Shown piece after piece: positions 13,301 to 44,336 of a stretch of DNA of 64,000 bases. Within the stretch, counting starts at the first letter, position 1. Each line of letters begins with the position of its first letter. This DNA is from a virus, in IMG/VR virus record IMGVR_UViG_3300025151_000019, positions 31,640 through 95,639 of that record; one strand, given 5' to 3'. A program made the translations under genes and the position numbers. Under the pieces are notes generated by a model that saw only the letters and a program-made list of their open reading frames with translations, searched no databases and was not told the DNA's origin.

Positions 13301-14864
13301 TCCATCTAATATTCATCAAATTATTAACCATACTATTAATACTACGGGTGCAACAGTTACTCATTATTTAGAAATAGATAATGTTACTTATAGCGGAACG
13401 GCACAGTTATCTACATATTATAGACTAATGAGAATTGCTAAAGATTGCACTTTCCAATTTACTCCGAACAATATAGAACTTTTAAATTTAAATAAAAAAT
13501 ATACTAAGAACCCTAATAAAAGAGAATGTTATACAGTAGTAGGTAAGCATAACAATTCTCCTATTAATGGTGGTATTGAAGCAGAAGATGATGTTACTAA
13601 TGAAGCAGTTTTATCCATGTATGCATTATTAGATGTAGATGGAACTGGAGATGTAAATAAAAGACAATATGTTTTAAGAAGAACATTAGGTTCTATGATT
13701 ACTACTGATGGTAGTGATGGAACAATTACAGCAGAAACATCTAAAAATATGCTAATTACTGACGGTATTAATGATGAACGATTATCTGTATCTTTTAATA
13801 TTCTTAATAACAAGCGTTTTATTAACCTATCTGAAATGTATAACATGAAAGGTGTGGTATCTTTTGGTGAAATTTTTGATGTTTCTTTATTTAATTCTCC
13901 TGTAAGTCTATCTGCTAAAAGATGCAATATTGCTTCAGCAGTAGATGTAGTAGAAGAAGTAGATGAAATTGTAAATGAAATTCTTGAAGAAAATGATGTG
14001 CAGTTTGAAACAAACTATGACACCACAAGTGACATGTATTTTATCGGACCTAATTTTTCAGGCGCAAACGGCTTCCATGCAATTAACAATTTGTTAGGTT
14101 TAAAAAATAAACGATTGTTAGTAAATGGAGAAAGGATAGAAGGAAGAGATTTACTTTCTGATAACCTATATACCAATCTTACATTTTCTGAAAACGATGA
14201 AAGTGAGGGTGTTGTTAATCTTAGAATTGATACATCATCATATGACTTCTACAATGAAGTTATTGTGTATGGAGATAATGCAAGGGGAGTAGCAAGGAAT
14301 AACAGGTCAATTCGTGACTTAGGAAGAAAGATTACTTTAGAAATTACAGACCTTAGCCTACAAACTTCTAAGGCGGCTCAAGACAAAGCGAACAAAGAAT
14401 TAGAGGTTGTTGAAATCCTTTCAAGTCAAGTGTCCTTCAATGTGTCTAAGTCCCGAATCCCTTACCTTAGAGCAGGGCAGGTTATCACATTGGACTATCC
14501 CTCACTTGATGTTCAAACGGGCTTCTATCAAGTCCTTGAGATTGAGGACAACTTTGGACAACTTCCCCGCATTACGGTGGGTAAATACACGCAAAGTCTC
14601 GCAAGTCGCTTTGCTGACCTGTCTCTTAAGACGAGAGAGATTCAGGGAGTCCAAAGAGGCAATCGTTTCCAAGAAGGAAACACGATTGTTCAAGAAGCAA
14701 TTATTCCAGAAATCAAACCTTTGAACTTGAAGGTTATTAAAACAGGAACAGCAGGGTCGCTATTAGGATTTACAAATACCTTAGGCTTTAGTTCGGAATT
14801 AGGATTTGAAACATCAAGTTCATTAACAGAAGAAGTAATTCTTAACGAAGATTTAACGGAGTGA
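7317..14864 (+). CDS. Giant baseplate hub / central tail-tip protein (2515 aa)
   Basis: Hub-like segments (VFDGYIESI..ISGRDY; YNEVIVYG..SIRDLG..LRAGQVITL) flank long S/T/N/G-rich inserts; tail module context. Confidence 0.7.
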   Translation: MGRAVTNVNISQIIALNKGVPLLSPIAWPYISPNYTELIYNDSSTIKSAFTNVSLNPRIITVGSTEILTAGVKSINCYEIHNAPTATVNSDSVFEISNIDAFNADGEVDTILNRLYPYDTNIESYLTVSASSSGNRINLEGQGALSNLISSGSLDTTYDYFVLIHADDAKNHHLAKITELHTYETFGDGFDFAPAFVGDIPKDTKISIYKGPAASDTHIVAVGYGLLGDADDSDGRHDTYVEVSRPTFYFYEDRCDKDKLSANTKYRIIKNMAYEISSTLKLDFGLKYTASQSDVGATPGISAHGTTVHFLTTSDYGGYIIDKTGYSQYGELVDSLAEADRTISVLADSSYSNAISNRTPVSNWTTNTYNKTTAIQLGKWSDSFINSMRDTHNTSTGVSSNTYDSPVKRIVTYENSDLKNYHLPHIQYIDLFDSVASIGNFMEMKFPDANKILNFKLKNFDNVLVKKEINSEDYSGAMNVQLPGVVSSSTTGWSLTFTQLNVGQDFRDIWGSSLVTTENTNKLRVGDFIFAGDFTSAPTIGVNGYEQIFAITHYRNIRTDYTWTATSSNWSLDAIEDGNAFVYPFMNKEGVIVAGFDIDTEYDGANIKRNGNTVSGVDNFIANTEVLVRDKELTGFTFDLNYGDKNLNYVKPKTTTYDGYQIRTRIRGTASRNTVPNIPELYSYINGDILHLDKVFDGYIESIKSNIQGGIVSYDISGRDYTNRLLDSVVNKNFTHTKDYIFTTVSPEADMNTQSGTVYIQDFDMGSTTIVVSSNSTSTTPTLEFGVGDVIYCTLKAQTKLLGIVSATAIKTGGSGGFTLGTYWNGSAHVAFTSNAKAIEITLTEPTLYSSYNKDYGAVNLKYSKKATSLGKALSANTSDSIFPTTLTGCSNKGIIYRSGEKISITTGAYDSDLVEASANESKFSIGYPISNISGSKSNTNFADYRFSISSDKAETNITQNDTISSSTEFAVVGRQVSENESILSLAPIFPVVLAKTSSNTSDTRISNGNGLYFVNTQGLSNGGFLHLLDSETSSVGASITFRSPGYKDFSSGVDSIDYRLEDNFGAFIWRYSGLQTADLFWDSEYLDKVWDMKKDDIFTPTNRVVDTGWFQNLMYGEKSPVKGYAIAQRINYDGVGVDFGTETNFTNHYQKLGSPESRDGFYPIIGSRFWDIDKMSDTLASVHYVKTKAVVQTFEDRNNSLRSYYPQISRRGGKPAADFSSWSLTKSRQSFESFDRNTENFYLFSTGDIYPDSYKRTNSIGYANRNLQKYSVVLKSQGSDSLTTTNHENYKGSTPSNLVSDASFEILPIQSSNVNTSELRRFGLVRLIEATYDWHFNEVDYENLPTEVKTELSEYSVVAPAGSIIEHEPELQDLTAGSAYGEPSVTGFGIEFISSSTTYPVDTNPPSGAEGYAFYQVDRAPKAGASKNIYSGYLYTDFINFNTGSTNKFGEYDVEELGRVLDKNPHNNSDDAAWVSLTGVITASDLVGRITSGGTDGGRTGNTYNNVGVSSSSGSNLKLTVVVNGSGTVTAITPYEYASARITGVTVKHRGSGYTTSNTLTIAGSSIGGGADVVITLDAADISTEHRIYVRGDVAGQDIYETNIGSTSTLGRSYTGFLKYNDIANVKAGDSPALKINDGSFKNALSNSASGDGPRLMNLGFIIGATGDNNPGSNGDLAYLGKDELSPTTVHNAGVKQTGYDLILPIYFSAGGSRTNKHDKFLKDIPSNHGNGGRLSTKSYDNNFELSRVINELAQWDEDTIISYTANATINPLGIGASQLYTDTIGIIKNLKMDNHTKIEYTEGRNRYQVELSNYDGATIPNLHISYLEGDGANKYFSIKYAFDFTNATSWKNETKGHTGSGMPSTVGSLGLFDANRHGFASNTDNMVGAEFYFKMVLNTGASNITVFDTDSITQTTNIPSSTSLKSNTQIQGRAIIRITTPDLTNHANNGKNAATPTNNGPFNKNNLWINFVNDLTGYYLASEPTDRKVNNTTPSNIHQIINHTINTTGATVTHYLEIDNVTYSGTAQLSTYYRLMRIAKDCTFQFTPNNIELLNLNKKYTKNPNKRECYTVVGKHNNSPINGGIEAEDDVTNEAVLSMYALLDVDGTGDVNKRQYVLRRTLGSMITTDGSDGTITAETSKNMLITDGINDERLSVSFNILNNKRFINLSEMYNMKGVVSFGEIFDVSLFNSPVSLSAKRCNIASAVDVVEEVDEIVNEILEENDVQFETNYDTTSDMYFIGPNFSGANGFHAINNLLGLKNKRLLVNGERIEGRDLLSDNLYTNLTFSENDESEGVVNLRIDTSSYDFYNEVIVYGDNARGVARNNRSIRDLGRKITLEITDLSLQTSKAAQDKANKELEVVEILSSQVSFNVSKSRIPYLRAGQVITLDYPSLDVQTGFYQVLEIEDNFGQLPRITVGKYTQSLASRFADLSLKTREIQGVQRGNRFQEGNTIVQEAIIPEIKPLNLKVIKTGTAGSLLGFTNTLGFSSELGFETSSSLTEEVILNEDLTE

Positions 14865-22311: not shown

Positions 22312-24714
22312 TTACCACCAACTATCTAATGTAGTCTGTCGGCCTTCATTGGCTATTCCCATTAAATCCCACCTTAGAGATTCATAAATCAATTTGACTT
22401 TCTTCACAATTTCAGATTCAGCAAGTCTATTCCAATTGATAGGATAGAAGTCTTCTACTTCTTCATACTTCTTAAATGCAATATACTCAACATTCCTTGT
22501 TTTATCACCAACATTGTATTTTGTTGGATATTTTTTAATACGCTTATTATCTACATTGTAGTAATAATAACTATCACCAACCTCAATCGTTCCAATTTGT
22601 TCATTATAAATTAGAACACCAGCAGAACCACCAGCGATTGATTCATATTCATCTAATGACTTTCGCAATCGGGTTCTCTTAATGACGGATTTAGGGTCAT
22701 ACTTTCCGTTCTTTACAAGTTTATACATGGCTCTTGTATATTTAGTGACTTCATTTTCATCTTTTCCAGATGCTACCATTTCAAGCACCTGTTTTTGAAC
22801 CTTTTTAGCCAACTTGGTTTCGTTAGATTTTTTCATTTCAAAGCCCATAACGAAAAATTGTTTTTCAGAAATAGTTTCGCCTTCTTTCCAACTCAGGAAT
22901 CCACAGTAGCGATTCTTTTTCTTAGATAAAAAGAAGGTTTCTGCATACTTCTCAAACTCCAAAACTACATTGTCATTGAACACTTCTTTTTGGATGTATT
23001 CATTTAACTTAATACACAATTGTTCGGCATCTGCAATATCCTTTACCTTCACAAAGATTGAATCCGTGTGTCCATAGATAACCGAATAACCCAACTCTTG
23101 AGACTTGAATGCAACACTTCTCATAGCCTCTCTCGCTGAAGCCGTAATTGCTTGAGCCATTTCCATATCTCCCCATCCATAACCGTCTTTCGCCAAAACG
23201 CCATAGAGAGCGTTCACACCACGCTTTGTAGCCATTTGTGCTGAATCCCACTTTCGGTATTCCTCATCATTCTTGGCCTCCTTTCGCTTCTTCTTGTATT
23301 CATCACGCAACTTCATTAGGGTCAAAACCGCCTTCGGCAACACGCCCAATGAATCCTTCGTAAAGGAAACACTTGGTTTATCTGGTTTGTATGCTACAAG
23401 ATTTTTAGGTGTTGGAAAGTATACTTTGTGAGCATCTTGGTTTTGAGTTTTTGTTTCCCATGAAATGTTTCGTGCGGCCATCATGCTTGGGTATAGAGAT
23501 TTAAAATCAAAGATGGCTACATTTTCATGTCTTCCATAAGTGTCTTCTTCATCTGGGTCCATAACGAAAGCCGCTTCATATTTTGTTTTATTACCTTTAA
23601 CTCCTGTCGGTGCTTTCCAATCCGAATGACGCATAAAATATGCCGCACCCATTTGTGAATTATGGAACACGCATTCAAATGGACAGATAAATAACTGCTG
23701 AAGTGCAATATCATTCTGTGTGATGTTCATCTCATTATCCATGCGAACCATCAATTCTACATCCACTCGGTTATACTCAAGGAATGTTTCACTATCTTCT
23801 AACCAAGAACGCAGAAAAAATTCATCCTCATCAAATTTAGATGTTTTAGAAACTTTACCTGCGTCTTCACCAAGCACTAACTTGGAACAGTCGTCTAATT
23901 TAAGAGATGGTAGTGTTCCTCTTTGTGCATCAAGCCAAAGTCGTTCAAAGCGAGTCATTAGACAATAGGTAATTCTACCCTTAATAGGTTGAGCCGCATT
24001 AGTGTAATTGATATTGTATAATTTAGTGTCAGACACTCCACGCACTTCACGATGAGGACTTAACTTTCGTGGGCTAATATCATTAAGATGCATTCTTTCA
24101 ATAATCTTAGGAATATCAAAACCAAGAAGATACCAACCAATAATCATATCTGGGTCTTTTTCTTGGACGAATGCAACAAACGCTTCTAACAAATCATGCT
24201 CATCCTCATAGACCAATACCCCATCATATTCTGGAAGAGGTTCTTGTGGAAAATGAGTCATAACAAAGTATTCCTTATCATAAGAATCATAGAAAGTTAA
24301 TGCGTTAATTTGACCATCATAACGACCACCGACTTGTGTTTCAATATCAAGATACCATTTACGCATATTATATTCAGGAATTTCTGTAAGCACATCATTA
24401 GCATATTTACGGGCAAGTGAAATATCACCTTCATATGTATAGTCCCAAAAATCACGGGCTTCATATAAGTCCTGTGTAGTGTTAAATGAAACCTTAATTA
24501 ACTCACGGTTATCAAGAGAATGATAATCACCAAAGTTATACTGAGGCTTAATATTCTCCATCCAACGCTTTTTAGTAGGAATAGTAGTGGGCATTTCACT
24601 ACCTTTCCTAATATAAAAATAAGGCTTAAAAGTTGTAATACTACTTGTCATTCTTTTTCCTTCTTCATCTCTCCATCTAAGTTCAACATTGCTTCTTGCA
24701 TCACTAATAATCAA
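22312..24714 (-). CDS. polB: Family B DNA polymerase
   Basis: Exo I DIET; pol motifs DFKSLYPS, KRGVNALYG, YGHTDS and KKNRY; no intein. Confidence 0.97.
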   Translation of the reverse strand: MIISDARSNVELRWRDEEGKRMTSSITTFKPYFYIRKGSEMPTTIPTKKRWMENIKPQYNFGDYHSLDNRELIKVSFNTTQDLYEARDFWDYTYEGDISLARKYANDVLTEIPEYNMRKWYLDIETQVGGRYDGQINALTFYDSYDKEYFVMTHFPQEPLPEYDGVLVYEDEHDLLEAFVAFVQEKDPDMIIGWYLLGFDIPKIIERMHLNDISPRKLSPHREVRGVSDTKLYNINYTNAAQPIKGRITYCLMTRFERLWLDAQRGTLPSLKLDDCSKLVLGEDAGKVSKTSKFDEDEFFLRSWLEDSETFLEYNRVDVELMVRMDNEMNITQNDIALQQLFICPFECVFHNSQMGAAYFMRHSDWKAPTGVKGNKTKYEAAFVMDPDEEDTYGRHENVAIFDFKSLYPSMMAARNISWETKTQNQDAHKVYFPTPKNLVAYKPDKPSVSFTKDSLGVLPKAVLTLMKLRDEYKKKRKEAKNDEEYRKWDSAQMATKRGVNALYGVLAKDGYGWGDMEMAQAITASAREAMRSVAFKSQELGYSVIYGHTDSIFVKVKDIADAEQLCIKLNEYIQKEVFNDNVVLEFEKYAETFFLSKKKNRYCGFLSWKEGETISEKQFFVMGFEMKKSNETKLAKKVQKQVLEMVASGKDENEVTKYTRAMYKLVKNGKYDPKSVIKRTRLRKSLDEYESIAGGSAGVLIYNEQIGTIEVGDSYYYYNVDNKRIKKYPTKYNVGDKTRNVEYIAFKKYEEVEDFYPINWNRLAESEIVKKVKLIYESLRWDLMGIANEGRQTTLDSWW

Positions 24715-24929
24715 TCTATCACATCCATTTCTAATAGTCTATCATGTAGGTATTGACATTGTTCAGGTAATACATGACATTGACCACTTGCTCGGTAGCC
24801 GCTAACATAAATAGCAGGCTGTCCTTTGAATATAGGATTCATACAAAGTTTGCATCTCGCTAACCCTGTTCCTTTCTTTACACCAAATCCAATAGCCATT
24901 ATATCACAATCCATGAGGTTGTGCTTCAA
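24711..24929 (-). CDS. Stand-alone PARP-type zinc-finger-like protein
   Basis: GTGLARCKLCMNPIFKGQ...CH..C. Confidence 0.5.
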   Translation of the reverse strand: MKHNLMDCDIMAIGFGVKKGTGLARCKLCMNPIFKGQPAIYVSGYRASGQCHVLPEQCQYLHDRLLEMDVID

Positions 24930-25944
24930 TTTGTCCTGCTTGAGTTACTCGGCAAAATTTAGCATTGTTTCTAAATTCGTTTAGGTCAATAGCACCAACA
25001 TAACTCATTGACGACCTAACACCATCATTAATATCCTGAACAATCCTACTTACCTTACCCTTGTAAGGAGTAATCTTTGAATTACCTTCAACATTTTTAA
25101 CCTCTTCACCACGAGCAACTTTAGATTCAATAGATGCAGACCCTTGATACTTTTTGAATAGTTTCTCATTAGGCCATTTACCCGTTTTAGCAATAGAACC
25201 TGGAGTTTCTTTTGTTCCTGAAAACAAAGAACCAATCATAACTGCATCAGCACCAAGAGCCAAAGCCTTAGCAACATCACCTGTTGTTTTAATTCCACCA
25301 TCAGCAACAATAGCAACATCCAATAATTCTTCTTCAAGGAAAGAGAAAATGTCATTAAGAGCCGTTGCTTGAGGAACACCTACTCCAGCCCTAATGCGAG
25401 TTTCACACATTGAACCATTACCAATACCGACTCTAAGTGTATCAGCACCTTCTTTAATTAAGTCCATAGCACCAGCCTTAGAAACAATATTACCTACCAT
25501 GACATGAATATCAGGATATTCAGATTTAATATAACTCGTCATTTCCATAGGAAGAGAATGATGCCCGTTAGCAACATCAATACAAACACCGCCAACTTGA
25601 GTATATTTAAGCAACTTGTCCAGCCTTTCAATACCGTTATTGCCGACACCAATGGCCGCCATATAATTTTGAACACCGTTAGCATCAATTTCATCACACA
25701 TATCAACCTGTTCATCTACACTTTGGAAACGATGCAAAACACCCATTCCTCCAAGTTTAGATAATTCAACGCACATATTAACGCCACAAACCGTGTCCAT
25801 TGGAGAAGCAATAAGAGGTGTAGCAAGAGAATATTCTCCAATATTGGTGTATAATTCGCATTCAGCACGACTACCAATACCAGACCATGTAGGTATAATA
25901 CTAATGTCGTCATAAGTCAAACTCATTCTTTCTTCAATTTTCAT
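24904..25944 (-). CDS. IMP dehydrogenase / GMP reductase family protein without CBS domains (possibly GuaC-type)
   Basis: SPMDTV, DVANGH, GIGNGSMCETR (catalytic Cys), ADGGI, YQGSAS..KNVEG. Confidence 0.9.
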   Translation of the reverse strand: MKIEERMSLTYDDISIIPTWSGIGSRAECELYTNIGEYSLATPLIASPMDTVCGVNMCVELSKLGGMGVLHRFQSVDEQVDMCDEIDANGVQNYMAAIGVGNNGIERLDKLLKYTQVGGVCIDVANGHHSLPMEMTSYIKSEYPDIHVMVGNIVSKAGAMDLIKEGADTLRVGIGNGSMCETRIRAGVGVPQATALNDIFSFLEEELLDVAIVADGGIKTTGDVAKALALGADAVMIGSLFSGTKETPGSIAKTGKWPNEKLFKKYQGSASIESKVARGEEVKNVEGNSKITPYKGKVSRIVQDINDGVRSSMSYVGAIDLNEFRNNAKFCRVTQAGQIEAQPHGL

Positions 25945-35203: not shown

Positions 35204-35653
35204 TTACTCTTCGGAGTCGTCTATCACGAAGACTCTTGTGTGTCTCAGGGTTTGACTGTTTTTGTCTTTCTCCCATGTGCAATACTCTCCATTACCTAAT
35301 ACAATTGCTGAATCTAAAATAGGTCGTTGAATCCTCAGGGTGTTCCAATCAGTTGAACTAAAGTAAGCCTTACCAAATGGATGCGTATGAATCCAACATT
35401 TCATAGGAATAGTCATACCCTTAACACTCTCATCCTCATAATCAACAAATGAGGCTGTTCCCTTACTGATAAACAACTTTTCGTCACGGTCAATAACTAC
35501 CGAAACTTCAAGTCCGGGTAAGATATTGGTGCTAAGATTCCAGACGGCTTCCCAGAATTTAGTAGTATTACCATTATTCTTATAATTCGTCCTCAGCAAT
35601 CTCTTCATTTTATTCCATTCCGCCAAAGGCATTTCATAGTTTTCTTCTTTCAT
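35204..35653 (-). CDS. JAB/MPN+ (JAMM) metalloprotease
   Basis: LEV (catalytic Glu)...WIHTHPFGKAYFSSTD = HxHx7Sx2D; likely start MKEENY. Confidence 0.85.
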   Translation of the reverse strand: MKEENYEMPLAEWNKMKRLLRTNYKNNGNTTKFWEAVWNLSTNILPGLEVSVVIDRDEKLFISKGTASFVDYEDESVKGMTIPMKCWIHTHPFGKAYFSSTDWNTLRIQRPILDSAIVLGNGEYCTWEKDKNSQTLRHTRVFVIDDSEE

Positions 35654-35657
35654 TTTT

Positions 35658-36188
35658 TCACATCCATGTAGGTTTTGCTCGCTTAGTGTATTTACTTCGC
35701 CAACTGTTCCATTGTTTATCACCACGATAATAATTTCGGTATGCTTGAATAGAGCATTCCGTTTTGTATTCATCGGGCATACATTGGGGTGGCTGAGTAA
35801 ATCCATTGTCCTCAATTAGAGTAGGAGGATTACGCAAGACTTCTCGCAAGCATCTGTCGGTCTTGTGTTCTTTTCCATAACGATAAGTGTATTCAATGCA
35901 CAATGATTCAAACAACTTAAATGTCCATTGATAGTGCTGGAGACTTGAACGAACCCAAATTGTTGAAGGGTGGCTGATATGTGCAGTTTTGTAAAGCACA
36001 TTGAGTTTGTCTTCGGGCAACTTTTGAAACACATATTCATTATCGTCGTTGCAGTAATAGTATTGGTCTACAACACGATGGGCTGTTGATAACATCTGCG
36101 CTGTTTCTAAAATCATTTTGATACAATGAGCATCATTGTGCATAATAGCAGCATTAGCAGGATTTTCGTGTAGGTAAAAGATATTCAT
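35658..36188 (-). CDS. Pyrimidine-dimer DNA glycosylase / endonuclease V-like protein
   Basis: MNIFYL..HCIKMILETAQMLSTAH..HPSTIW..EYTYRYGKEH..QCMPDEYK..AYRNYY. Confidence 0.8.
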   Translation of the reverse strand: MNIFYLHENPANAAIMHNDAHCIKMILETAQMLSTAHRVVDQYYYCNDDNEYVFQKLPEDKLNVLYKTAHISHPSTIWVRSSLQHYQWTFKLFESLCIEYTYRYGKEHKTDRCLREVLRNPPTLIEDNGFTQPPQCMPDEYKTECSIQAYRNYYRGDKQWNSWRSKYTKRAKPTWM

Positions 36189-36249
36189 TGCAACCAAGCC
36201 TCACATGTCCAATAATTAATTTCAAATTTAAGATTATAGTAATAGTAAT

Positions 36250-36628
36250 TCATACTTTATCTCTCCACATATTATTTATTTCTTCTGCACATTTAAAACA
36301 CCAGAAAACCTGATTGTTCAAATAATGAACAGATTTACCGATACATACTTTACATTCAGTGCAATTCATTTCCTTCATTGTATCTTTATATTTCATTCTT
36401 CTTCCCCCAATAGATTGTTTGGCTCAGAATAATCCGACAAAACTCTATGAATAATCTCAGACATAACTCCAATAAATACAATCAGAACCGCCAGCGTAAT
36501 AATAGGATTCATTCTTTCACCTCTTCCCAAGTAGATGCTACATTACAACAGGTAATAGCATTAACAATAACTGGAGTTTTTCGTTCATAGTGGCGACCAC
36601 ATCTCGGACAATCATATACTACTGTCAT
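36250..36628 (-). CDS. Chain of three ATGA-coupled mini-ORFs: 36509-36628 Zn ribbon, 36393-36512 membrane peptide, 36250-36396 Cys-rich
   Basis: MTVVYDCPRCGR.., MNPIITLAVLIVFIG.., MKYKDTMKEMNCTEC..; stop and start codons overlap. Confidence 0.5.
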
Positions 36629-36633
36629 GTTAA

Positions 36634-36852
36634 TCACTCCAATGGTTCAAATCCAAGTGCAATTTGTCGCTCAGCAGAACAGTCAAATGGGTTAGAATGA
36701 ATCTGCCCACTTACACGATACCCTACCAATTTAATATTGCTTTGTTCAGTCGTAATAATTTGTCCACATACACGACAAGTAGCATTACCTGTTCCCATAC
36801 CGACAATCCAGCCTTTTGTTTGTTCTTTCTTTTCTTCACTCGCCATCATCAT
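36634..36852 (-). CDS. PARP-type zinc-finger-like protein (paralogue of 24711-24929)
   Basis: GTGNATCRVCGQII...GYRVSGQIH...C. Confidence 0.5.
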   Translation of the reverse strand: MMMASEEKKEQTKGWIVGMGTGNATCRVCGQIITTEQSNIKLVGYRVSGQIHSNPFDCSAERQIALGFEPLE

Positions 36853-36921
36853 CACATCCTTCATCCATTGTTCCAATACCAATTGCAGCACCAATCAACC
36901 AACTTAATAGACCCATTTAAA

Positions 36922-37488
36922 TCACCCGTTAATCCTGAAGTGCTTTTCAACATAATTCCCAATGAAATAATTTTGCATCCATTGAGCACCATAACCTGCA
37001 ATAACAACCTGCATAAACTTTACACCTTCTGGCTTTCCATCCCAATCATTTCCTTGACAAGAAAAAGAACCATCAGGACCACTTGTAAATGCATTGTAAA
37101 ACTTAGGGTCTTCTTGATATGAAATCATAGCGGCATTCCTACCCTGCGCTCGCAAATCTAACCACTTAACATCAGAGTTATACATAACCCTACGAATATC
37201 AAGATTATCTGCACAACAAACAACCAAATCAAATCCTTTAATCTGTCCAGCAGTTAAAACGGGGAAAGGTTTAGCGTCAATTTTGTATCGCTTAGCCATA
37301 GCATCTACCTTTTTTGTCTCAACTTCATCTTTGGCAAAATTTTGGTATGTTATATTCTTTTCCTCCACAATATCTGGGTCATAAACAGTCATATTATACA
37401 ACCCTGTCTTGTCCAAAAGAGGAATTAGAAAACTTCCAATTCCACCTGCTCCAATTATTAGCACATTTCTTTTCTTTCCTTTCTTCAT
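36922..37488 (-). CDS. E1-like (ThiF/MoeB) ubiquitin-like activating enzyme
   Basis: GAGGIGS, DPDIVEEKNITYQ, KV, CADNLDIR, WLDLR and a possible catalytic Cys in FSCQ. Confidence 0.9.
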   Translation of the reverse strand: MKKGKKRNVLIIGAGGIGSFLIPLLDKTGLYNMTVYDPDIVEEKNITYQNFAKDEVETKKVDAMAKRYKIDAKPFPVLTAGQIKGFDLVVCCADNLDIRRVMYNSDVKWLDLRAQGRNAAMISYQEDPKFYNAFTSGPDGSFSCQGNDWDGKPEGVKFMQVVIAGYGAQWMQNYFIGNYVEKHFRING

Positions 37489-38108
37489 TTTTTCACCTTC
37501 TTTATGTTTCTTTTTAGTCTCGGCAAACTAATACCGAATTTTTCACACACTTCTTTTTGGGTATATGGTGCGTGGACATATACAAAAGCAGCAATAATAC
37601 CTCTCGTTAAAGTTTCTTGCTCTTCCCAATCTTTACAAGCCTTAGCAACTTCTTTATTACTAATCTCATAGTTAGATAAAAACTCGTCAATATCATTTAG
37701 ACTAAACACTCCTGCGTTACTAAAGTATCTTGCAATCTTTTTACTTAGTCTGGTTGTTTTTGCTGTATTACATCCTAAGAACTTACAGAACTGTCTAAGC
37801 ACAACTGGTTTATTTAAATCACTCATAGTATAATACAAAATAGCACAGGCTCTCTCAGCCAAATCATAGCCTTGATAAAGCGTTGTTTTGCTAATATGTT
37901 CATGATTTTTATTGACCTCATCAGTATCATCAATATTAAACTGGTTGCATAGTAGGAGTAACTCAGAAGTCTTTACCTCTTTTACTTCAGTTAGTCTTCC
38001 AATTTCTACTATCCTATACGCTTGTATGCAACCACATTCTTGACAAACGGGCAACCCAATATCACGATTTAATTTTAGGTGCTTTGCTTGACAATTTACA
38101 CATGGCAT
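37485..38108 (-). CDS. tfb: Transcription factor B (TFB/TFIIB)-like protein
   Basis: N-terminal Zn ribbon CVNC..VCQECG, cyclin-like helices (ACAILY; AAFVY), C-terminal HTH TQKEVCEKFGISLPRLKRNIK. Confidence 0.75.
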   Translation of the reverse strand: MPCVNCQAKHLKLNRDIGLPVCQECGCIQAYRIVEIGRLTEVKEVKTSELLLLCNQFNIDDTDEVNKNHEHISKTTLYQGYDLAERACAILYYTMSDLNKPVVLRQFCKFLGCNTAKTTRLSKKIARYFSNAGVFSLNDIDEFLSNYEISNKEVAKACKDWEEQETLTRGIIAAFVYVHAPYTQKEVCEKFGISLPRLKRNIKKVKK

Positions 38109-39309
38109 CCCAATCCAACCTAATATCCTGTTGATTTTCTTTGTGATGTTGAATGTAGCGTGATACAGTAGAAACTAATTTCTTCAACATAGCATCATTT
38201 TTACATGCAAACGCTCTCGCCGCAAATTGGTCGCCCTTTGTAGCACCATTACTTAGATTGTCAATACAAATTGGGCCATTCCATCTGGCTACTCTATCAG
38301 TCTTATTGATAACAGGATGGCTAAATGGTTGAGTTTGCGCTTCTCCAGCAGTTCCTGTTGTTAGAACATAAGTAGATACATCTTGAATACCTCGTTTTGA
38401 TTTATTATCAACAATCATCCAATCAGCAAACTTACCACGAACAAACATAGCAAGAACACCATTATGTTGTCCCTTAGTAATTTCAGGGTAATCACGACAC
38501 ATATTTTCAAACAATTCCATCGCTCGCTTTTCTGCACCCTCAGGTTTTCGGTTCTGTTTCAAAAATTCCTTCATAATCTTAACCTGCGCTTTTGTAGGCA
38601 TTTCTCCAACCGTTTGATAAAACAATTTAGCGGGAGGTAGATTAGACCACTTCTTAGAACGCTTTCGGCCAATAAGATAAGAATCTACAAGAGAGTTTAG
38701 TTCTTTGACACCAATTTCACCCCAGAGACCAGAACTCACTTCAATTGCAAATTTGTCTTCATCAATTTGCATTAGATTAAGACGGGTCATTCTCTTTTCA
38801 ATTTCATTATCTGTTCGCTCATAGAAATGATAAGGCACACGGTTTTCCATAGCATATGCAACATTTTCTGGAATGTTAATGCATCGGTTTAGATAATCGT
38901 CAAGAGCCATTTGAGCATCAATCCCTTTACCATCTAAGTAGGCGGCTCGCATAATAGTTCGTGCTAATGCTTTAAGAATAATTTCAACATTGCACTTTTC
39001 ACCATTAATAGCATATCTCGCACCATCCTTATGAATTGAAATTAAATAACGACAACGACCAATACGGAAAAGAACGGGGCGTGGACTTCTCCTCACCATA
39101 CCAAGAATGTCATTATTTTTTAACCCTTGATAGATAGACTGAATTGTTGGTTCAGTAGCATCAGAACGATTACCTCGTCGTGCATAAATATCTACATTTC
39201 TTGAACGACGAATACTTCTTGATGATAGAGGAGTTTCTAAAATACTCGTTCTATCATCTGATGCGTGTCTAATTCTAAAGTTTAGTGTATTTTCAGTCAT
39301 TTTTATCAC
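38062..39309 (-). CDS. Multidomain protein with a candidate C-terminal E2 (UBC-like) domain
   Basis: FSHPVIN...NGPICIDNL resembles the E2 signature HPN(I/V)...GxICLdiL; near E1 and JAB genes. Confidence 0.5.
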   Translation of the reverse strand: MIKMTENTLNFRIRHASDDRTSILETPLSSRSIRRSRNVDIYARRGNRSDATEPTIQSIYQGLKNNDILGMVRRSPRPVLFRIGRCRYLISIHKDGARYAINGEKCNVEIILKALARTIMRAAYLDGKGIDAQMALDDYLNRCINIPENVAYAMENRVPYHFYERTDNEIEKRMTRLNLMQIDEDKFAIEVSSGLWGEIGVKELNSLVDSYLIGRKRSKKWSNLPPAKLFYQTVGEMPTKAQVKIMKEFLKQNRKPEGAEKRAMELFENMCRDYPEITKGQHNGVLAMFVRGKFADWMIVDNKSKRGIQDVSTYVLTTGTAGEAQTQPFSHPVINKTDRVARWNGPICIDNLSNGATKGDQFAARAFACKNDAMLKKLVSTVSRYIQHHKENQQDIRLDWDAMCKLSSKAPKIKS

Positions 39310-40330
39310 CTAATATTTTCATTACAACATTTAATTGTTTTACACTTAGTTCCTTTCCGTCAATAATCTGTTGCCTAATACTGACAAGGAAATTCTTTTC
39401 CCATGTATTTCTTCCGTCTTCACTACTAAATGCGGGGAGGTCATAAAGTGCTAATGCCTCAGTAAATAGTTCGTTTGATTGTTGTTCATATGTGGTAGCC
39501 CTTATATCTTCTGCAATCTTTTTTGTAGGATTTAGATATGCGATTCTTGCCGCCTTTTCTTCATCCTTATCATCCATCATTTTTGTTAGGCGTTCTTTCT
39601 TAGCAAATAAAAGTTGCACATCACGCCATAGCCTTTCGTTAGGATAACCACGGGTTTCAATTTGTTTTCTTGGATTATTGGGATGATTCCAACGCCAAAC
39701 AACCGAAGCCATCCTACCCAATGAACCTTGTTTTGTTTTAGCAATAACAAAGGTTGGTTCGTAGCGTCGTGTTTGATGAGAATACTTTCTACCTTTTGAA
39801 CGAACATTAACTCTCAAGTCTAATTCCTTAACTTCATTGAACATTTCTTCCCATTCATCACCATATTCATTCCACCACCATTCGGCCTTCATACTCTTCA
39901 CGGCTTCCTTCAACCATTCTTGAATTAACTCTTCAGTAATGGCTTCGGGGTTGATACCTTTATGTTCAATCAGGTGGCGAATAATCATCCAGTTAGTGAT
40001 ATGCTCACTACCAAGAATTTCAAGTTCGCCGTTTTCAGTATTCTCAATCTCAAAATGCCATGCAATTTCATGTCCGCATATACAATAATGTGGATGTTTA
40101 TGTTGATGGACTTCTGGTAAAACCTCAGCGTCTTTATCACGCAAGGGGATATACCATGTATTTCCCGTTGCTCTCCATTCATGCTTTGCTTCTTCCCAAT
40201 TATCAGACACAGATTCTTTTGTTAAGCGGTCAATAAGTGCCTTGTTTAGAGCACCTGAGCGACTAACACTAATGTTATCCAACAATTCACCGTCAGCAAA
40301 ATGTGTTCCTACAAATTCAGTCATTTTCAA
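39293..40330 (-). CDS. Hypothetical protein with a Zn-binding motif
   Basis: CICGHEI..IENTENG..LGSEHI. Confidence 0.55.
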   Translation of the reverse strand: MKMTEFVGTHFADGELLDNISVSRSGALNKALIDRLTKESVSDNWEEAKHEWRATGNTWYIPLRDKDAEVLPEVHQHKHPHYCICGHEIAWHFEIENTENGELEILGSEHITNWMIIRHLIEHKGINPEAITEELIQEWLKEAVKSMKAEWWWNEYGDEWEEMFNEVKELDLRVNVRSKGRKYSHQTRRYEPTFVIAKTKQGSLGRMASVVWRWNHPNNPRKQIETRGYPNERLWRDVQLLFAKKERLTKMMDDKDEEKAARIAYLNPTKKIAEDIRATTYEQQSNELFTEALALYDLPAFSSEDGRNTWEKNFLVSIRQQIIDGKELSVKQLNVVMKILGDKND

Positions 40331-40577
40331 CCCTCAACCATGCTAATTGTTCTGTTAGATGTGCATCACACAAATCATTTAATTTACCATGTAGGCTTTC
40401 TGTAATTCCAGGAATTGTATTTCGGTGTAGTGATAACCAAACCTGATGATATTGATTAAGGACAATAACCAATCCTTCTCCATCTTCATGAGGTTTAATC
40501 ACAATAGGTGGCATTTCGTTGCTGTCAATCAGCCTAAATTCTACTTCTTTCTTCTTTCTCATTTGCATTTTTTTCAC
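40317..40577 (-). CDS. Hypothetical protein
   Basis: ORF in the operon. Confidence 0.45.
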   Translation of the reverse strand: MKKMQMRKKKEVEFRLIDSNEMPPIVIKPHEDGEGLVIVLNQYHQVWLSLHRNTIPGITESLHGKLNDLCDAHLTEQLAWLRVEND

Positions 40578-40777
40578 TCCATATTCAATAGGTGTGTTAG
40601 TGGGTCTTGTTTTAGAGTTTGTTTGCTCAACAAAATGTGAGGAAACTTACTCAATAGTAAAGGAACGACCTTATTCCAATCTATTTCTCCGTCATACTGT
40701 TTAGTCCAAACTGAACCGTTGGATTTCAACGAAGTGACTCTATATACTTCATGTTTTTCTTCCTTGCTTTCGCTCAT
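40574..40777 (-). CDS. Hypothetical protein
   Basis: ORF in the operon with a GGAG RBS. Confidence 0.4.
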   Translation of the reverse strand: MSESKEEKHEVYRVTSLKSNGSVWTKQYDGEIDWNKVVPLLLSKFPHILLSKQTLKQDPLTHLLNME

Positions 40778-40836
40778 ACTTATTTCTCCATTGTCCTTCC
40801 GTTTATGGTAATTTTTGTATCTTTACTGTCATGCAA

Positions 40837-42705
40837 TCAAAAAATTTCGCATGACCCTCCAGAACAGGCAATTTCACCGCTTAGGTCTGTTTCATCTTCT
40901 GTTTCCACAATCTTAGAAAGGTCTACTGCTGTCAAAGTATTAACCATGTCATAGTATTGAGCCATTCTAATAGTTTCAAAGGGTGCTTGTTTGTATGTCC
41001 CACCATCATAGGGTAAAACGGACAAGCCATTGTAGTATTTTCTGTTATTCCACATCCATTCCCCGACTTCATCCCATTCATATTTGCGAATTGATACAGT
41101 AGCGGAGACATTATGGGAGTTCATACCTGAAACATGGCCTCCTTTGACCCATGTGCGACTAATGTTCTTCACCCTATGAAGCATATTCAAAGCGGTTTCC
41201 TCGCCACGGAGGATGGCTTTATCGGGTGCTTTTTGGGGTAATGAAATGACCGCCGTATCATGTGGTCGGAAGTATTCATCCTCAATCAGTTCTGGGTGAT
41301 TTTGAGCCAGATAATTGTAAATGGCTTCATTCTTTCCAACACGGATTCTTCTAATGTAAAATTCGTCGTGCCATGCGTGAATACCGCTTGATGTTCCAAG
41401 AACACATGAAGTTGTTCCTGCTGGTTTAACACAAGTTTGTCTCGCAGCAGGGTTAATTCCAATCTCTTTTGCAATTGATTCATTTGTTGCTTTTATAGCA
41501 TTAGTGATAGCCTTAAAATCCATTTTCCTAACACGATTAGAAGCAATACCTGTCATAGATACACCAATTAGTGCATCACGCTCGGTATTTTTCTGCCAAA
41601 TCTCTCGCAAGTAATGGAAATCAGTATATCCTGCTTGTAGAGTAGCGATAATGGTGGCCGCAGTTGCTCTTTTTAGTAAATCCTCTTCATCAATAACATC
41701 AGAAGCATTAATTTCTACCAAGTTGCAAAACTGATTTGGTCGCAAAGCAATTTCACAGCATGGGTTCGTGCCCCAATCTTTATCATTAGTAAAATAAATT
41801 CCTGGTTCACCTGCACCAGATAATTCAATATATTTCCAAAGTTCTTCAAAGTCCTTTTTCTCAACTTTACTTCGCACTAAGACAGCCGAATTGTTTGCAC
41901 GACCACGCTGAGGATTTAGTTCCCACCAATTGCCTGATTTTGCAGTAAGCATATCATAATCGTCACGGCTAAATAAAGAAATTAAAGCCGCACGACGAAT
42001 ACCGCCAGCCAAAACTGCATCAGCAATATGACACATAATATCATGGACTTGAATAGGTTCTAATTGTTCATGATTGGGGGTGTTTTTTAGAATGCCTTCA
42101 ATTTTATTAATGGCAATTTTTAGTGGTTCAGGGCCTGGGGCTTTTCCTCCAGAAGTAATTAAACGCTCTCCTTTCAAACGAACATCCGAATAATCAAAGA
42201 TTGGCGTTGAGGTGTTTCGGCCAAAGTAAGATTTCATTAAAACTTTTATTGCGTCTGACCATCCCTCAATAGAATCGCCAACTAAATAACGACGAGTTCT
42301 ATTAGGATTAGGGTGTATAACAGACGGTAATCGGGAAACATGATGTTTTTGCACCGAATAACCTACTCCTGTCCCGCCAAGTAAAAGAAACATTGACTCA
42401 CTAAATGCTGCAATGTTATCAATAGGCATATATGCACAATTATAGATTCGGTTTGGGCTTAGTTCAATAGGCTTCCCAGCAAATTGCATTGAACGCATAG
42501 ATGGTAGAACCTTTTTACTCCTCACAAAGTTGTAGGCGTTAGTAATAACTTTCTTCAATTCGGGATATTTCTTAATATGCATATTCATATTTCTGTCGCA
42601 TAGTTCTTCCCAAGTCTCTCTTCGTTGTAGTTCAGGTGCGTATTTTGCATATTTCATATGAACGGTAATATCGCTCAAAATTTCATTAGGATTTATGTTT
42701 GTCAT
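40837..42705 (-). CDS. nrdJ: Class II (B12-dependent) ribonucleotide reductase, monomeric RTPR type
   Basis: PSMR, YNCAY, GTGVG, GGIRRAA, TNPCCEI, TCVKPAGT and C-terminal ACSGGSCE; no small-subunit gene seen. Confidence 0.92.
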   Translation of the reverse strand: MTNINPNEILSDITVHMKYAKYAPELQRRETWEELCDRNMNMHIKKYPELKKVITNAYNFVRSKKVLPSMRSMQFAGKPIELSPNRIYNCAYMPIDNIAAFSESMFLLLGGTGVGYSVQKHHVSRLPSVIHPNPNRTRRYLVGDSIEGWSDAIKVLMKSYFGRNTSTPIFDYSDVRLKGERLITSGGKAPGPEPLKIAINKIEGILKNTPNHEQLEPIQVHDIMCHIADAVLAGGIRRAALISLFSRDDYDMLTAKSGNWWELNPQRGRANNSAVLVRSKVEKKDFEELWKYIELSGAGEPGIYFTNDKDWGTNPCCEIALRPNQFCNLVEINASDVIDEEDLLKRATAATIIATLQAGYTDFHYLREIWQKNTERDALIGVSMTGIASNRVRKMDFKAITNAIKATNESIAKEIGINPAARQTCVKPAGTTSCVLGTSSGIHAWHDEFYIRRIRVGKNEAIYNYLAQNHPELIEDEYFRPHDTAVISLPQKAPDKAILRGEETALNMLHRVKNISRTWVKGGHVSGMNSHNVSATVSIRKYEWDEVGEWMWNNRKYYNGLSVLPYDGGTYKQAPFETIRMAQYYDMVNTLTAVDLSKIVETEDETDLSGEIACSGGSCEIF

Positions 42706-42752
42706 AATTTCACTTCCAGTATTTTTTCATAGTTTATCTTTATTATAAAAGT

Positions 42753-43001
42753 TTAGATTTTGGCTGAAAAGTTATTCCATTCATTAACACATTTTGGGTT
42801 GTAGCACCCATCACATATATATCCGTATAGAGGTTTAGTATTAACACTTGCCCATGATTTAGGAGCATTAACTACCGTTTTTTTCTCAACATTACCATGC
42901 TTACTTGATGGTGTGGGTAGTGCAATTACACTAACAGCACCATAAGGTTGCTTAGTTTCTTTATTCACAATTATTTTCTTTTTACATGTTATACATTTCA
43001 T
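42753..43001 (-). CDS. Small Zn-finger protein
   Basis: CITC...ICDGC. Confidence 0.45.
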   Translation of the reverse strand: MKCITCKKKIIVNKETKQPYGAVSVIALPTPSSKHGNVEKKTVVNAPKSWASVNTKPLYGYICDGCYNPKCVNEWNNFSAKI

Positions 43002-43228
43002 ATTTGTTCACCATCCTTTCTAAAAACCTTCCTAACAGAAGATTTAATTTCGTGGTAGATACCCTTTACTTTAGGGCTTTTAGATACGCTGACAGTTTTG
43101 ATAGTCCCCGTATCTTTATTTTGAATCTTGAATATTAGATGTTTCTTGATTTCATAACCAATAACCTCCACATTCAAGGTTTCTATTTCTTTCGTTATTT
43201 TGTCTATTTCTTTCTTTTTCATTCGCAT
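42998..43228 (-). CDS. HicA-like (dsRBD-fold) small basic protein
   Basis: Helix, then KKHLIFKI..TVSVSKSP, then helix. Confidence 0.4.
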   Translation of the reverse strand: MRMKKKEIDKITKEIETLNVEVIGYEIKKHLIFKIQNKDTGTIKTVSVSKSPKVKGIYHEIKSSVRKVFRKDGEQI

Positions 43229-43246
43229 ACCTCCGTATTGAATAGG

Positions 43247-43320
43247 CGGGCATAGGAGGATTTGAACCCCCGTTTTCGGTTTAGAAGACCGAAGTGATTT
43301 CCAAACTACACTATATGCCC
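43247..43320 (-). tRNA. tRNA-Arg(TCT)
   Basis: Acceptor GGGCATA/TATGCCC, anticodon arm TCGGT-CTTCTAA-ACCGA, T loop GGTTCAAATCC; no encoded CCA. Confidence 0.9.
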
Positions 43321-43322
43321 AT

Positions 43323-43410
43323 TGGTGGCGAGAGTGGGATTTGAACCCACGAATCTCTTAGGAACAGGATTTTAAGCCCTGCGCTTTTAACCATGCTCAG
43401 CCATCTCGCC
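43323..43410 (-). tRNA. tRNA-Leu(TAA)
   Basis: Acceptor GGCGAGA/TCTCGCC followed by ACCA, anticodon arm CAGGG-CTTAAAA-TCCTG, long variable arm, T arm GTGGG-TTCAAAT-CCCAC. Confidence 0.92.
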
Positions 43411-43702
43411 GTATGTATTCCACATTGTAATCTTTACAATATTTCTTTAGAGCACTTACATGAACATCATCCTTTTCATTATAGTCCATGTCATTATAAA
43501 CTCGCATGAGTTCATTTAGATACATTCCTTTCATCTCGTCTGGAATTTCAGAATTTACTGCATCTTCAAAATGACGAAGTAAAATTTCTAAGCCACCATA
43601 AGTAGCAATATCCTTTTCTTGTTGTTTCATATCCTTTATTTCTTGGCGGAAAGTCAAGTATAATTTAGGAATATTCTTAATAGTATACCATATTGCCTTC
43701 AT
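43397..43702 (-). CDS. Hypothetical protein (3' end overlaps tRNA-Leu by 14 nt)
   Basis: ORF coupled to the upstream gene. Confidence 0.5.
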   Translation of the reverse strand: MKAIWYTIKNIPKLYLTFRQEIKDMKQQEKDIATYGGLEILLRHFEDAVNSEIPDEMKGMYLNELMRVYNDMDYNEKDDVHVSALKKYCKDYNVEYIRRDG

Positions 43703-44046
43703 TCCAATCCCGCCTCAAATTCCGCTTCATCTTCAAGATATATAAAAATTTGAAGGGCTTCTTTTATTCGCTTATCTTGACTTTTACCATGTCTCCATTG
43801 ACAGGTTCTTCGCATCAAGTTAATAATTTCCCCACGATGAGTTTCGGGCTTTTTACCATACATAGTCTTTAGGTTTGCTATTTGAGTTCGCACACCTAAA
43901 ATAGTAAATTCCTTTTTCATCCATTGGAAAGGACTTCCATAAGTTGTAAATTCTATCTTATCATCACGATAGTCTTCTGCAAGATAAATCGTCATGCTTT
44001 CTAAAACTTCAGTATCAATTTCTGTAAATTCAATCATATTAATCAC
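43699..44046 (-). CDS. Hypothetical protein
   Basis: ORF in the operon. Confidence 0.5.
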   Translation of the reverse strand: MINMIEFTEIDTEVLESMTIYLAEDYRDDKIEFTTYGSPFQWMKKEFTILGVRTQIANLKTMYGKKPETHRGEIINLMRRTCQWRHGKSQDKRIKEALQIFIYLEDEAEFEAGLE

Positions 44047-44123
44047 TTAAAAAAAATGGTTCTAACCGCTAAACGGCTACATAAGAGTAGGTCAAACCAA
44101 GCCTACAATTCGGATTAAAATCC

Positions 44124-44336
44124 TTACTCTTCTTCGTTTCCACCAACAATTGCCTGAGCAAGCATAACTTCATTGACTTCATCAAAGTTGATGTTTGTAA
44201 TATCCTCACGGGTTACAAGTTCACCATCAACATAAGTCCAATGAGTAGGATGCTCAATAATTTGGTCAAGAACCTCGCTCGCAGAAAGAGAAAGTTCGGT
44301 GTGTCCTGTTTCGTTAAGAATAGTTAGTTTCACCAT
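44124..44336 (-). CDS. Ubiquitin-like (beta-grasp, ThiS/MoaD/SAMP-like) precursor ending GG-NEEE
   Basis: 70 aa; beta-beta-alpha-beta pattern with YVDGELV and EVMLAQAIVGG (compare ThiS/SAMP V.l.p.v.GG) plus a 4-residue extension. Confidence 0.75.
   Translation of the reverse strand: MVKLTILNETGHTELSLSASEVLDQIIEHPTHWTYVDGELVTREDITNINFDEVNEVMLAQAIVGGNEEE

Follow-up and report, generated by a model that had tools for sequence, protein, structure and literature searches.

The IMG/VR record IMGVR_UViG_3300025151_000019 is a 95,639-bp virus genome that has direct terminal repeats and is rated complete, and the window considered here, meaning the whole stretch of 64,000 nucleotides that was analysed, corresponds to bases 31640-95639 of that record. 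The source is a marine, tailed archaeal virus of the magrovirus type: homologues of the window proteins were met in marine metagenomes and on contigs of 90-96 kb, which matches that group. Magroviruses are tailed viruses that have been assigned to Marine Group II (Poseidoniales) archaea (PMC5434244). A tail tube protein is also encoded in the window. The present analysis concerns four genes of the replication-gene block, a long run of minus-strand genes (~16.6-46.9 kb). The four encode a candidate ubiquitin-like protein (Ubl) with a short C-terminal tail, a JAB/JAMM metalloprotease, a very small ThiF-type adenylyltransferase (mini-E1) and a larger protein with a putative E2-like domain (E2L). 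A sequence-only reading of this stretch had grouped them as one protein-tagging pathway, and all four open reading frames (ORFs), with the motifs claimed for them, were found where that reading had placed them (Table 1). They are not chance ORFs, since each has a large conserved family with invariant residues, represented by 95 Ubl, 243 E2L and 813 E1 clusters and by 111 JAB representatives.

Table 1. Positions in the window of the four genes under study, followed by neighbouring and other features.
Feature	Position	Strand	Details
Ubl precursor, 70 aa	44124-44336	minus	body (residues 1-66) ends AIVGG (44139-44153), then 4-residue tail NEEE
E2L, 415 aa	38062-39309	minus	C-terminal UBC-like domain (model), residues 255-402 (38104-38547); Cys348 codon 38266-38268 in GPICIDN
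Mini-E1, ThiF-type adenylyltransferase, 188 aa	36922-37488	minus	GAGGIGS 37432-37452; invariant Cys144 codon 37057-37059 in GSFSCQG
JAB/JAMM metalloprotease, 149 aa	35204-35653	minus	Glu49 and HxHx7SxxD at 35348-35389
Viral TFB homologue, 207 aa	37485-38108	minus	zinc-ribbon gene between E2L and E1
86-aa zinc-ribbon gene	36634-36894	minus	between E1 and JAB
phrog_624 'DNA binding protein' gene	35658-36197	minus	between E1 and JAB
Zinc-finger protein, ~112 aa	34845-35183	minus	CxxCxGxGCxxC N-terminus; directly downstream of JAB
Class II (B12-type) ribonucleotide reductase	40837-42705	minus	
IMPDH/GMP-reductase-like protein	24904-25944	minus	family match 4.6e-89
Family B DNA polymerase	22312-24714	minus	
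2515-aa ORF	7317-14864	plus	in structural block

The four proteins

The candidate modifier belongs to a family with the invariant pattern ILNETGHTEL...HPTHW...AIVGG. In all of the cluster representatives that have AIVGG (91/91), the Gly-Gly pair is followed by a tail of 1-24 residues, and in the viral proteins the residues past it are often acidic, Asn, Tyr or Cys. None of the representatives ends at Gly-Gly, so proteolytic maturation looks obligatory, and this universal tail would fit maturation by the JAB protease. A model of the protein made with AlphaFold2 (AF2) (predicted local distance difference test score, pLDDT, 74; predicted template modelling score, pTM, 0.54) has the element order b-a-b-b-(a)-b, then GG, which in the model is compatible with the ThiS or MoaD beta-grasp fold. 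For comparison, a MoaD/ThiS profile was built from 33 archaeal PF02597 proteins taken from genomes, and hhalign aligned residues 9-66 of the Ubl with it, GG to GG, at a score of 23.9 (P ~5e-4, probability 27-32%). This score was reached by none of 300 column shuffles, 150 of them full and 150 with the C-terminus kept (mean 11, standard deviation 2.4, maximum 20.3). The protein atlas gave only one lead, at 0.83, to a Thermoplasmatota 'ThiS family' cluster, and some homologues carry the JGI name 'sulfur carrier protein ThiS', while a sequence-profile search of the PDB with the Ubl returned nothing meaningful. Judged from its sequence, the 70-residue protein is probably a diverged MoaD/ThiS-like Ubl. 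Its attachment to targets could not be followed by the diGly proteomics that the sequence-only reading had proposed, because no Lys or Arg lies past Arg43 and trypsin would leave a 23-residue remnant, E44 to G66.

Contigs that are ~90% identical to the window occur in two salt-marsh metatranscriptomes and cover parts of JAB, E1, the TFB/E2L junction, the ribonucleotide reductase and the Ubl gene. In one of these metatranscriptomes the Ubl gene (window 44050-44336) is covered by a 940-nt contig of ~90% identity at a depth of 50, and the contigs from the rest of the cluster have depths of 3-8. The depth of the Ubl contig could, as a weak hint, mean that a related virus expresses the modifier strongly. 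The contigs are not counted as evidence of expression because DNA may be present and contig depth cannot rank genes.

The JAB protein contains the motif letters HTHPFGKAYFSSTD, and its catalytic residues E49, H89, H91, S99 and D102 are all present. The signature is kept in 40 diverged homologues, so that the JAMM motif, which had been described as intact, is indeed a complete and conserved E...HxHx7SxxD. Against the Pfam model Prok-JAB (PF14464) the protein scores 15.9 bits, below the cut-off of 25, and a search of the PDB with a profile of the family matched AMSH-LP (E 4.7e-4) in the motif region only. Matches of the same profile to armadillo-repeat structures were disregarded as repeat-driven, low-complexity matches to the variable N-terminus. 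Searches of PHROGs, NCBIfam and PADLOC gave no match for the JAB, Ubl or E2L proteins.

The mini-E1 is a genuine member of the ThiF family, as had been proposed, with 56.7 bits against the Pfam ThiF model (PF00899; cut-off 28.1, E 2.5e-15) and 54.1 bits in the search of the genome, and the match takes in only positions 16-128 of the 238-position profile. The clusters of its family, collected at E up to 0.001, are nearly all of 180-200 residues, and the chain of the window copy ends ~44 residues past Cys144. Invariant in 26 homologues are GAGGIGS, D37, D39, K44-N45, Q49, K60, D94-N95, R99, R113, R117 and C144. A profile search of the PDB matched MccB, UBA5, Cap2, MoeB, NAE1, Uba4 and Uba1, and the best named models are ThiF and MoeB. 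The protein is neither a UbaA equivalog (NF047750, 33.6 bits against a cut-off of 450) nor a PRTRC ThiF protein (TIGR03736, 34.3 bits against 144.75), and the other PRTRC models had no match in the ten neighbouring proteins scanned. The CBASS E1-E2 models of PADLOC match only residues 5-70, the Rossmann part.

The E2L family has as its conserved signature the invariant block GPICIDN...GDQ..RA...ND. The copy in the window contains ...SHP...WNGPICIDNL, and Cys348 is invariant in 39 viral homologues. The AF2 model of the protein (pLDDT 85) shows in its C-terminal domain a helix at 256-273, four strands, a variable loop, a short hairpin, Cys348 and helices from 358, such that Cys348 is placed after strand 340-347 and before helix 358-370, as it is in E2 enzymes. 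We take the local G-x-I-C-[IL]-D to resemble the E2 active-site stretch. Foldseek returned only weak E2 matches with this model (E 0.1-0.8), and the top 50 matches were mostly E2, UEV or RWD structures in both Foldseek-independent and Foldseek-seeded searches; in the seeded re-examination residues 255-402 were aligned to essentially whole E2 domains. No known fold was found for the N-terminal ~250 residues, and the protein atlas had no usable match for residues 250-415. By predicted fold, position of the cysteine and genomic context the 415-residue protein appears to be E2-like, and it falls in no described E2 sequence family. The candidate E2 of the sequence-only reading gains a UBC-like predicted fold and a suitably placed invariant Cys, and has neither a conserved HP(N) element nor a match to an E2 sequence family.

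Linkage in related viruses and homologues in Poseidoniales

Co-occurrence of the four genes in related viruses had been put forward as a check on the grouping, and it was examined in 83 loci, 80 of them from IMG/VR, each with an E1 homologue of 54-94% identity at its centre, and three being contigs filed in GTDB genomes, which were scanned with profiles of the Ubl, E2L, E1 and JAB families. The gene order is unbroken in these loci and on one strand: Ubl ... E2L - TFB - E1 - (0-2 small genes) - JAB - zinc-finger protein - ligase. All four genes are present in 50 of the 83, and wherever one is absent the locus ends short of the distance seen in the nearest relative, so that no locus with adequate flank lacks a gene. 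In many lineages (for example L079, L034, L062 and L072) Ubl, E2L, TFB, E1 and JAB are contiguous within ~4 kb, and in many related viruses JAB directly follows E1. In other lineages the ribonucleotide reductase and small genes are inserted between Ubl and E2L, and the lineage of the window has the largest insert. Although the genes around it are reshuffled, the set itself is retained, and this speaks for selection acting on it.

Loci L082, L083 and L084 have the full magrovirus gene order and are filed in GTDB bacterial metagenome-assembled genomes titled Maricaulis sp. and Altibacter sp.; mis-binning of viral DNA is the most likely explanation.

A search of IMG/VR did not find the homologues of JAB that are most diverged (25-45% identity). 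These were located in 80 marine metagenome loci, and in every such locus of at least 6 kb a mini-E1 of ~210 residues lies immediately upstream of JAB. Members of the clusters are named in NCBI as Candidatus Poseidoniaceae, Poseidoniales or Thalassarchaeaceae archaeon, the host-type homologues sit on contigs of up to 0.6-2 Mb, and their neighbours are cellular, including an aldehyde:ferredoxin oxidoreductase, a GDP-mannose dehydratase, a FadB-like enzyme and a Taw1/TYW1-type radical SAM enzyme. Together, the large contigs, the cellular neighbours and the names identify these as chromosomal genes of the order assigned as the hosts of magroviruses. Locus L135:7252-8659 is listed with the Poseidoniales loci that carry the diverged set.

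These chromosomal loci hold several fused forms of the modifier. In L120-L124 (e.g. L123:6763-8001) a single ORF encodes Ubl-Ubl-mini-E1, with each Ubl ending in LVGG, and in L143:6168-7361 an E2L-like protein carries at its N-terminus a fused Ubl that likewise ends in LVGG, while standalone Ubls with tails of 5-40 residues are present in L159, L160, L180, L194 and L198. Directly upstream there are E2L-like genes, two of them in tandem in L180. The fusions do not depend on synteny and are a separate line of evidence, both for a modifier that acts together with E1 and the E2-like protein and for the need of a protease to cleave behind Gly-Gly. Taken with the order kept in the 83 viral loci, they support the earlier proposal of one functional set built around a modifier that ends in Gly-Gly.

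The host E2L-like proteins retain the cysteine and share [IV]-C-I...P-[LI]-G-D-[QR]...[ND]-D with the viral GPICIDN...GDQ...ND, and a comparison of the viral and host profiles gave a probability of 79% (E 1.5e-5) over 130 columns that correspond to residues 229-386 of the E2L in the window and span the whole UBC-like domain. Identity between virus and host is 34-38% for Ubl, 32% for E1 and 38-44% for JAB. In an unrooted tree of E1, 53 host and 70 viral sequences are cleanly separated by a branch of 1.58 substitutions per site with a support of 1.0, and this clean split on a long branch indicates that the viral copy is old and is not a recent capture. In many of the host loci with E1-JAB, neither a Ubl nor an E2L lies within 8 kb. 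A conserved protein of ~79 residues follows JAB in 62 of the host loci, and no viral homologue of it was found.

A candidate conjugation cascade and its alternatives

The best reading of the four genes is a virus-encoded cascade that conjugates a Ubl to proteins, and we consider it reasonably probable. According to this proposal, the JAB protease would cut the 70-residue precursor after Gly66 with release of NEEE, and it may later strip the modifier from its targets. The mini-E1 would bind ATP and adenylate the exposed Gly-Gly end, possibly passing the modifier to its own Cys144, as the enzyme family suggests. The modifier would then move to Cys348 in the UBC-like C-terminal domain of E2L, a step suggested by the fold, the position of the cysteine and the linkage of the genes. 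It can be speculated that the N-terminal region of E2L (~250 residues) chooses the target and that the modifier is placed on a lysine of a host or viral protein. The purposes and substrates that had been named for the system (host defence, transcription and the virus's own proteins) are speculation.

Several results weigh against such a cascade. For the modifier, the AF2 model matched no solved or beta-grasp structure either with Foldseek or in two VIA runs, and the models of Pfam and NCBIfam, those for ThiS included, gave no match in 30 Ubl members. For the beta-grasp fold named in the sequence-only reading, the support comes from the profile comparison with MoaD/ThiS. For E2L, the assignment of a UBC-like fold comes from one AF2 model of the whole 415-residue protein. 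A Pfam search of 39 members (E up to 5) found neither UQ_con, Prok-E2 nor any other relevant family, a sequence-profile search of the PDB gave nothing meaningful, and hhalign of the C-terminal domain with eight Prok-E2_B domains gave a probability of 0.1%. The HP that precedes GPICIDNL, which had been read as part of a motif, is confined to the closest relatives, in a stretch that is highly variable and has large indels. The mini-E1 lacks the C-terminal Ubl-binding/zinc region of MoeB, ThiF and UbaA, with no CxxC pairs, and has no E2-binding domain, and the Arg of the usual N-L-x-R-Q motif is presumably replaced by Tyr48, if our mapping from MoeB is correct. The conserved gene order could partly reflect the shared descent of related viruses, and a tail, a JAB protease and an E1 are found together in sulfur-carrier pathways as well.

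The last point leads to the main rival, in which JAB exposes Gly-Gly, E1 adenylates it, and a Ubl thiocarboxylate serves as the sulfur donor for a cofactor, tRNA, DNA base or small molecule, with E2L acting as a sulfur relay or acceptor. MoaD/ThiS proteins are the only kin of the Ubl at the sequence level, the ThiS names given by JGI and the ThiF and MoeB models that best match the E1 point the same way, and a mini-E1 without an E2-binding domain would suit this chemistry, as would the tails that JAMM proteases remove from Ubls in the CysO/Mec+ and QbsE/QbsD sulfur pathways. However, the complete viral genome has no match for rhodanese, cysteine desulfurase, MoaE or an NCS6/TilS-type enzyme and no true ThiG. 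The absence of thiamine, molybdopterin and tRNA-thiolation genes asserted by the sequence-only reading thus extends, for the four families searched (MoaE, rhodanese, ATP_bind_3 and Aminotran_5), to the whole 95.6-kb genome. E2L models as a UBC-like fold with a Cys at the E2 position, and the Ubl-E2-like fusion in L143 and the tandem Ubl repeats look like polyubiquitin-type precursors. Host enzymes could still supply the sulfur, and we regard a sulfur carrier as unlikely. A weak ThiG match in the genome fell on the IMPDH/GMP-reductase-like protein and is a TIM-barrel cross-match.

The presence of E1, JAB, Ubl and E2L homologues on Poseidoniales/Thalassarchaeaceae chromosomes, at 32-44% identity to the viral proteins, raises the further possibility that the viral proteins are diverged decoys or hijackers that disable a Ubl-based response of the host, for example with JAB stripping host conjugates or with E1/E2L trapping the host modifier. 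Bacterial Bil and CBASS Cap2/Cap3 illustrate that such cascades can take part in conflicts between viruses and hosts. Interference of this type is nevertheless distinctly unlikely, in that all four parts are kept and their catalytic residues are invariant across very diverged viruses, which a working cascade fits better, the viral and host E1 groups are so cleanly separated that no recent capture is indicated, and in several contigs the genes next to the host E1-JAB pair are the same housekeeping genes, with no obvious defence island.

It is very unlikely that E2L stands outside the chemistry altogether, with Ubl, E1 and JAB forming an E2-independent, SAMP-like or self-acting set and E2L being a co-inherited protein of the replication module or the main substrate. 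Archaeal SAMPylation does need no E2, the E2 assignment comes from weak fold scores, and many host loci have E1-JAB with no E2L within 8 kb, but every viral locus whose flank is long enough has E2L next to Ubl or E1, E2L-like genes are directly upstream of Ubl or Ubl-E1 in L120-L124, L143, L160, L180 and L198 with one of them fused to a Ubl, and the Cys, GDQ and ND residues are invariant. A lambda-type role of the Ubl and JAB in tail assembly (TAPI/TAPK) is rejected, as the genes are in the replication module on the strand opposite to the tail genes and an E1 is present.

Known systems and neighbouring genes

Bacterial operons for a Ubl, a JAB, an E2-like protein and an E1 were predicted in 2006 as type 6d by Iyer, Burroughs and Aravind (PMC1779556), and operons of the Bil type were later found to be antiviral (bioRxiv 10.1101/2023.09.26.559546). 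The Bil-type operons encode the same four roles together, with a JAB that is presumed to mature or remove the Ubl. The present set differs from them in its carriers, an archaeal virus and, with a diverged version, Poseidoniales, in the size of its E1 (~185 residues), and in an E2L of ~400 residues that has a large extra N-terminal region and no sequence-family match to the Prok-E2 or UQ_con models. In CBASS, Cap2/Cap3 include a fused E2-E1 with a cGAS-like partner, whereas the viral E1 and E2L are separate genes; no CD-NTase search was made.

Among archaeal systems, the Haloferax SAMPs that have been studied end at Gly-Gly, unlike the tailed viral Ubls. SAMPylation in Haloferax (UbaA as E1, SAMP1-3 and HvJAMM1; PMC2948915) has in common with the viral set an archaeal setting, a MoaD/ThiS-like modifier with Gly-Gly, a MoeB/ThiF-type E1 and a JAMM protease, but no E2 is needed there, whereas a conserved Cys protein of UBC-like predicted fold is part of the viral set. 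The operon of Caldiarchaeum subterraneum (Ub, E1, E2, small RING and Rpn11-like JAB; PMC3082918, PMC5654768) is likewise an archaeal Ubl-E1-E2-JAB set with the gene of a zinc-binding protein inside it. Its proteins are recognisable members of the eukaryotic families, whereas the viral Ubl and E2L match no such model, and the zinc-ribbon gene in the viral cluster is a TFB homologue and not a RING. Finally, CysO/Mec+/MoeZ and QbsE/QbsD/QbsC each combine, as the viral set does, a ThiS/MoaD-like protein that has residues past Gly-Gly with trimming by a JAMM protease and a MoeB-like enzyme. The CysO and Qbs clusters lack a UBC-like Cys protein, and no counterpart of their rhodanese domain or their sulfur-accepting enzyme was found in the viral genome.

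In the RaFAH paper (PMC8276007) ThiF/MoeB is noted as an auxiliary gene that marine archaeal viruses frequently carry, with one sentence on a possible link to ubiquitination. This is probably the same E1 gene family, and only the E1 is mentioned there. E1-like genes have also been reported in an Asgard virus. The magrovirus and Poseidoniales-virus literature examined makes no mention of ThiF, JAB or ubiquitin, and the literature searched, with subscription journals outside its scope, describes neither the cassette and its Ubl, JAB and E2L nor their homologues in Poseidoniales. A megablast search of the cluster region against GenBank phage records gave no match.

On balance, we give about even chances to the broader view that Poseidoniales and magroviruses share a previously undescribed Ubl conjugation family, which would consist of a minimal E1 of ~185-215 residues, an E2-like protein with C-I...GD[QR]...[ND]D and without HPN, a tailed or tandem MoaD/ThiS-like modifier and a JAMM protease, with the virus using its own long-separated copy to tag host or viral proteins. 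If true, this would be, within the literature searched, the first report of an entire Ubl-E1-E2-protease cascade in a prokaryotic virus, and a virus of prokaryotes could then carry a full tagging cascade of the kind known so far from cells and from the interplay of eukaryotic viruses with their hosts. It would also define a very small E1 (~185 residues) and a new E2-like family, and it would bear on the minimal machinery for Ubl conjugation and on the origin of E1-E2 cascades from sulfur-carrier systems. Marine Group II archaea belong to the most numerous microbes of the surface ocean and are still uncultured, and their viruses are equally abundant. The parallel system in the host points to Ubl tagging as a part of the interplay between this globally important group of plankton and its viruses. 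The proteins are small and expressible in Escherichia coli, and the question is hence directly testable without culture of the host.

The gene that follows E2L and precedes E1 in nearly all of the viral loci encodes a zinc-ribbon protein that had been named as a candidate substrate. It is a real TFB homologue, as was established through a longer relative of 322 residues (L073:9057-10022) that matches the TFIIB zinc ribbon (5e-12) and the TFIIB (cyclin) repeat (2e-11), and nothing marks it as a substrate. The protein is of 280-325 residues in most lineages and is shortened to ~207 in that of the window; it is absent from the host clusters and is probably not a catalytic part of the set. No family match was found for the 123-residue protein that the sequence-only reading had called histone-fold, and neither this protein nor the 86-residue zinc-ribbon protein has a homologue in the host loci. 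The phrog_624 and 86-residue genes split E1 from JAB only in the lineage of the window, the two being abutting or overlapping elsewhere, and the phrog_624 gene is placed elsewhere in the module in other lineages. One further ORF of the window was read by eye, with no family search, as what is presumably an ATP-dependent DNA ligase.

The zinc-finger protein downstream of JAB begins with MSIVCPICGGAGCNVCNKTG, a DnaJ-like CxxCxGxG zinc-finger pattern, and phmmer found it in this position in 72 viral loci. It has no match in Pfam and no homologue in the host loci, and its membership of the four-gene set is uncertain.

Acidic C-termini are enriched across the window, the last residue being Asp or Glu in 33% of 82 non-overlapping ORFs compared with 13.9% overall. 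Many of the JAB homologues terminate exactly in EE or EEE, and the tails of the Ubls are often acidic as well.

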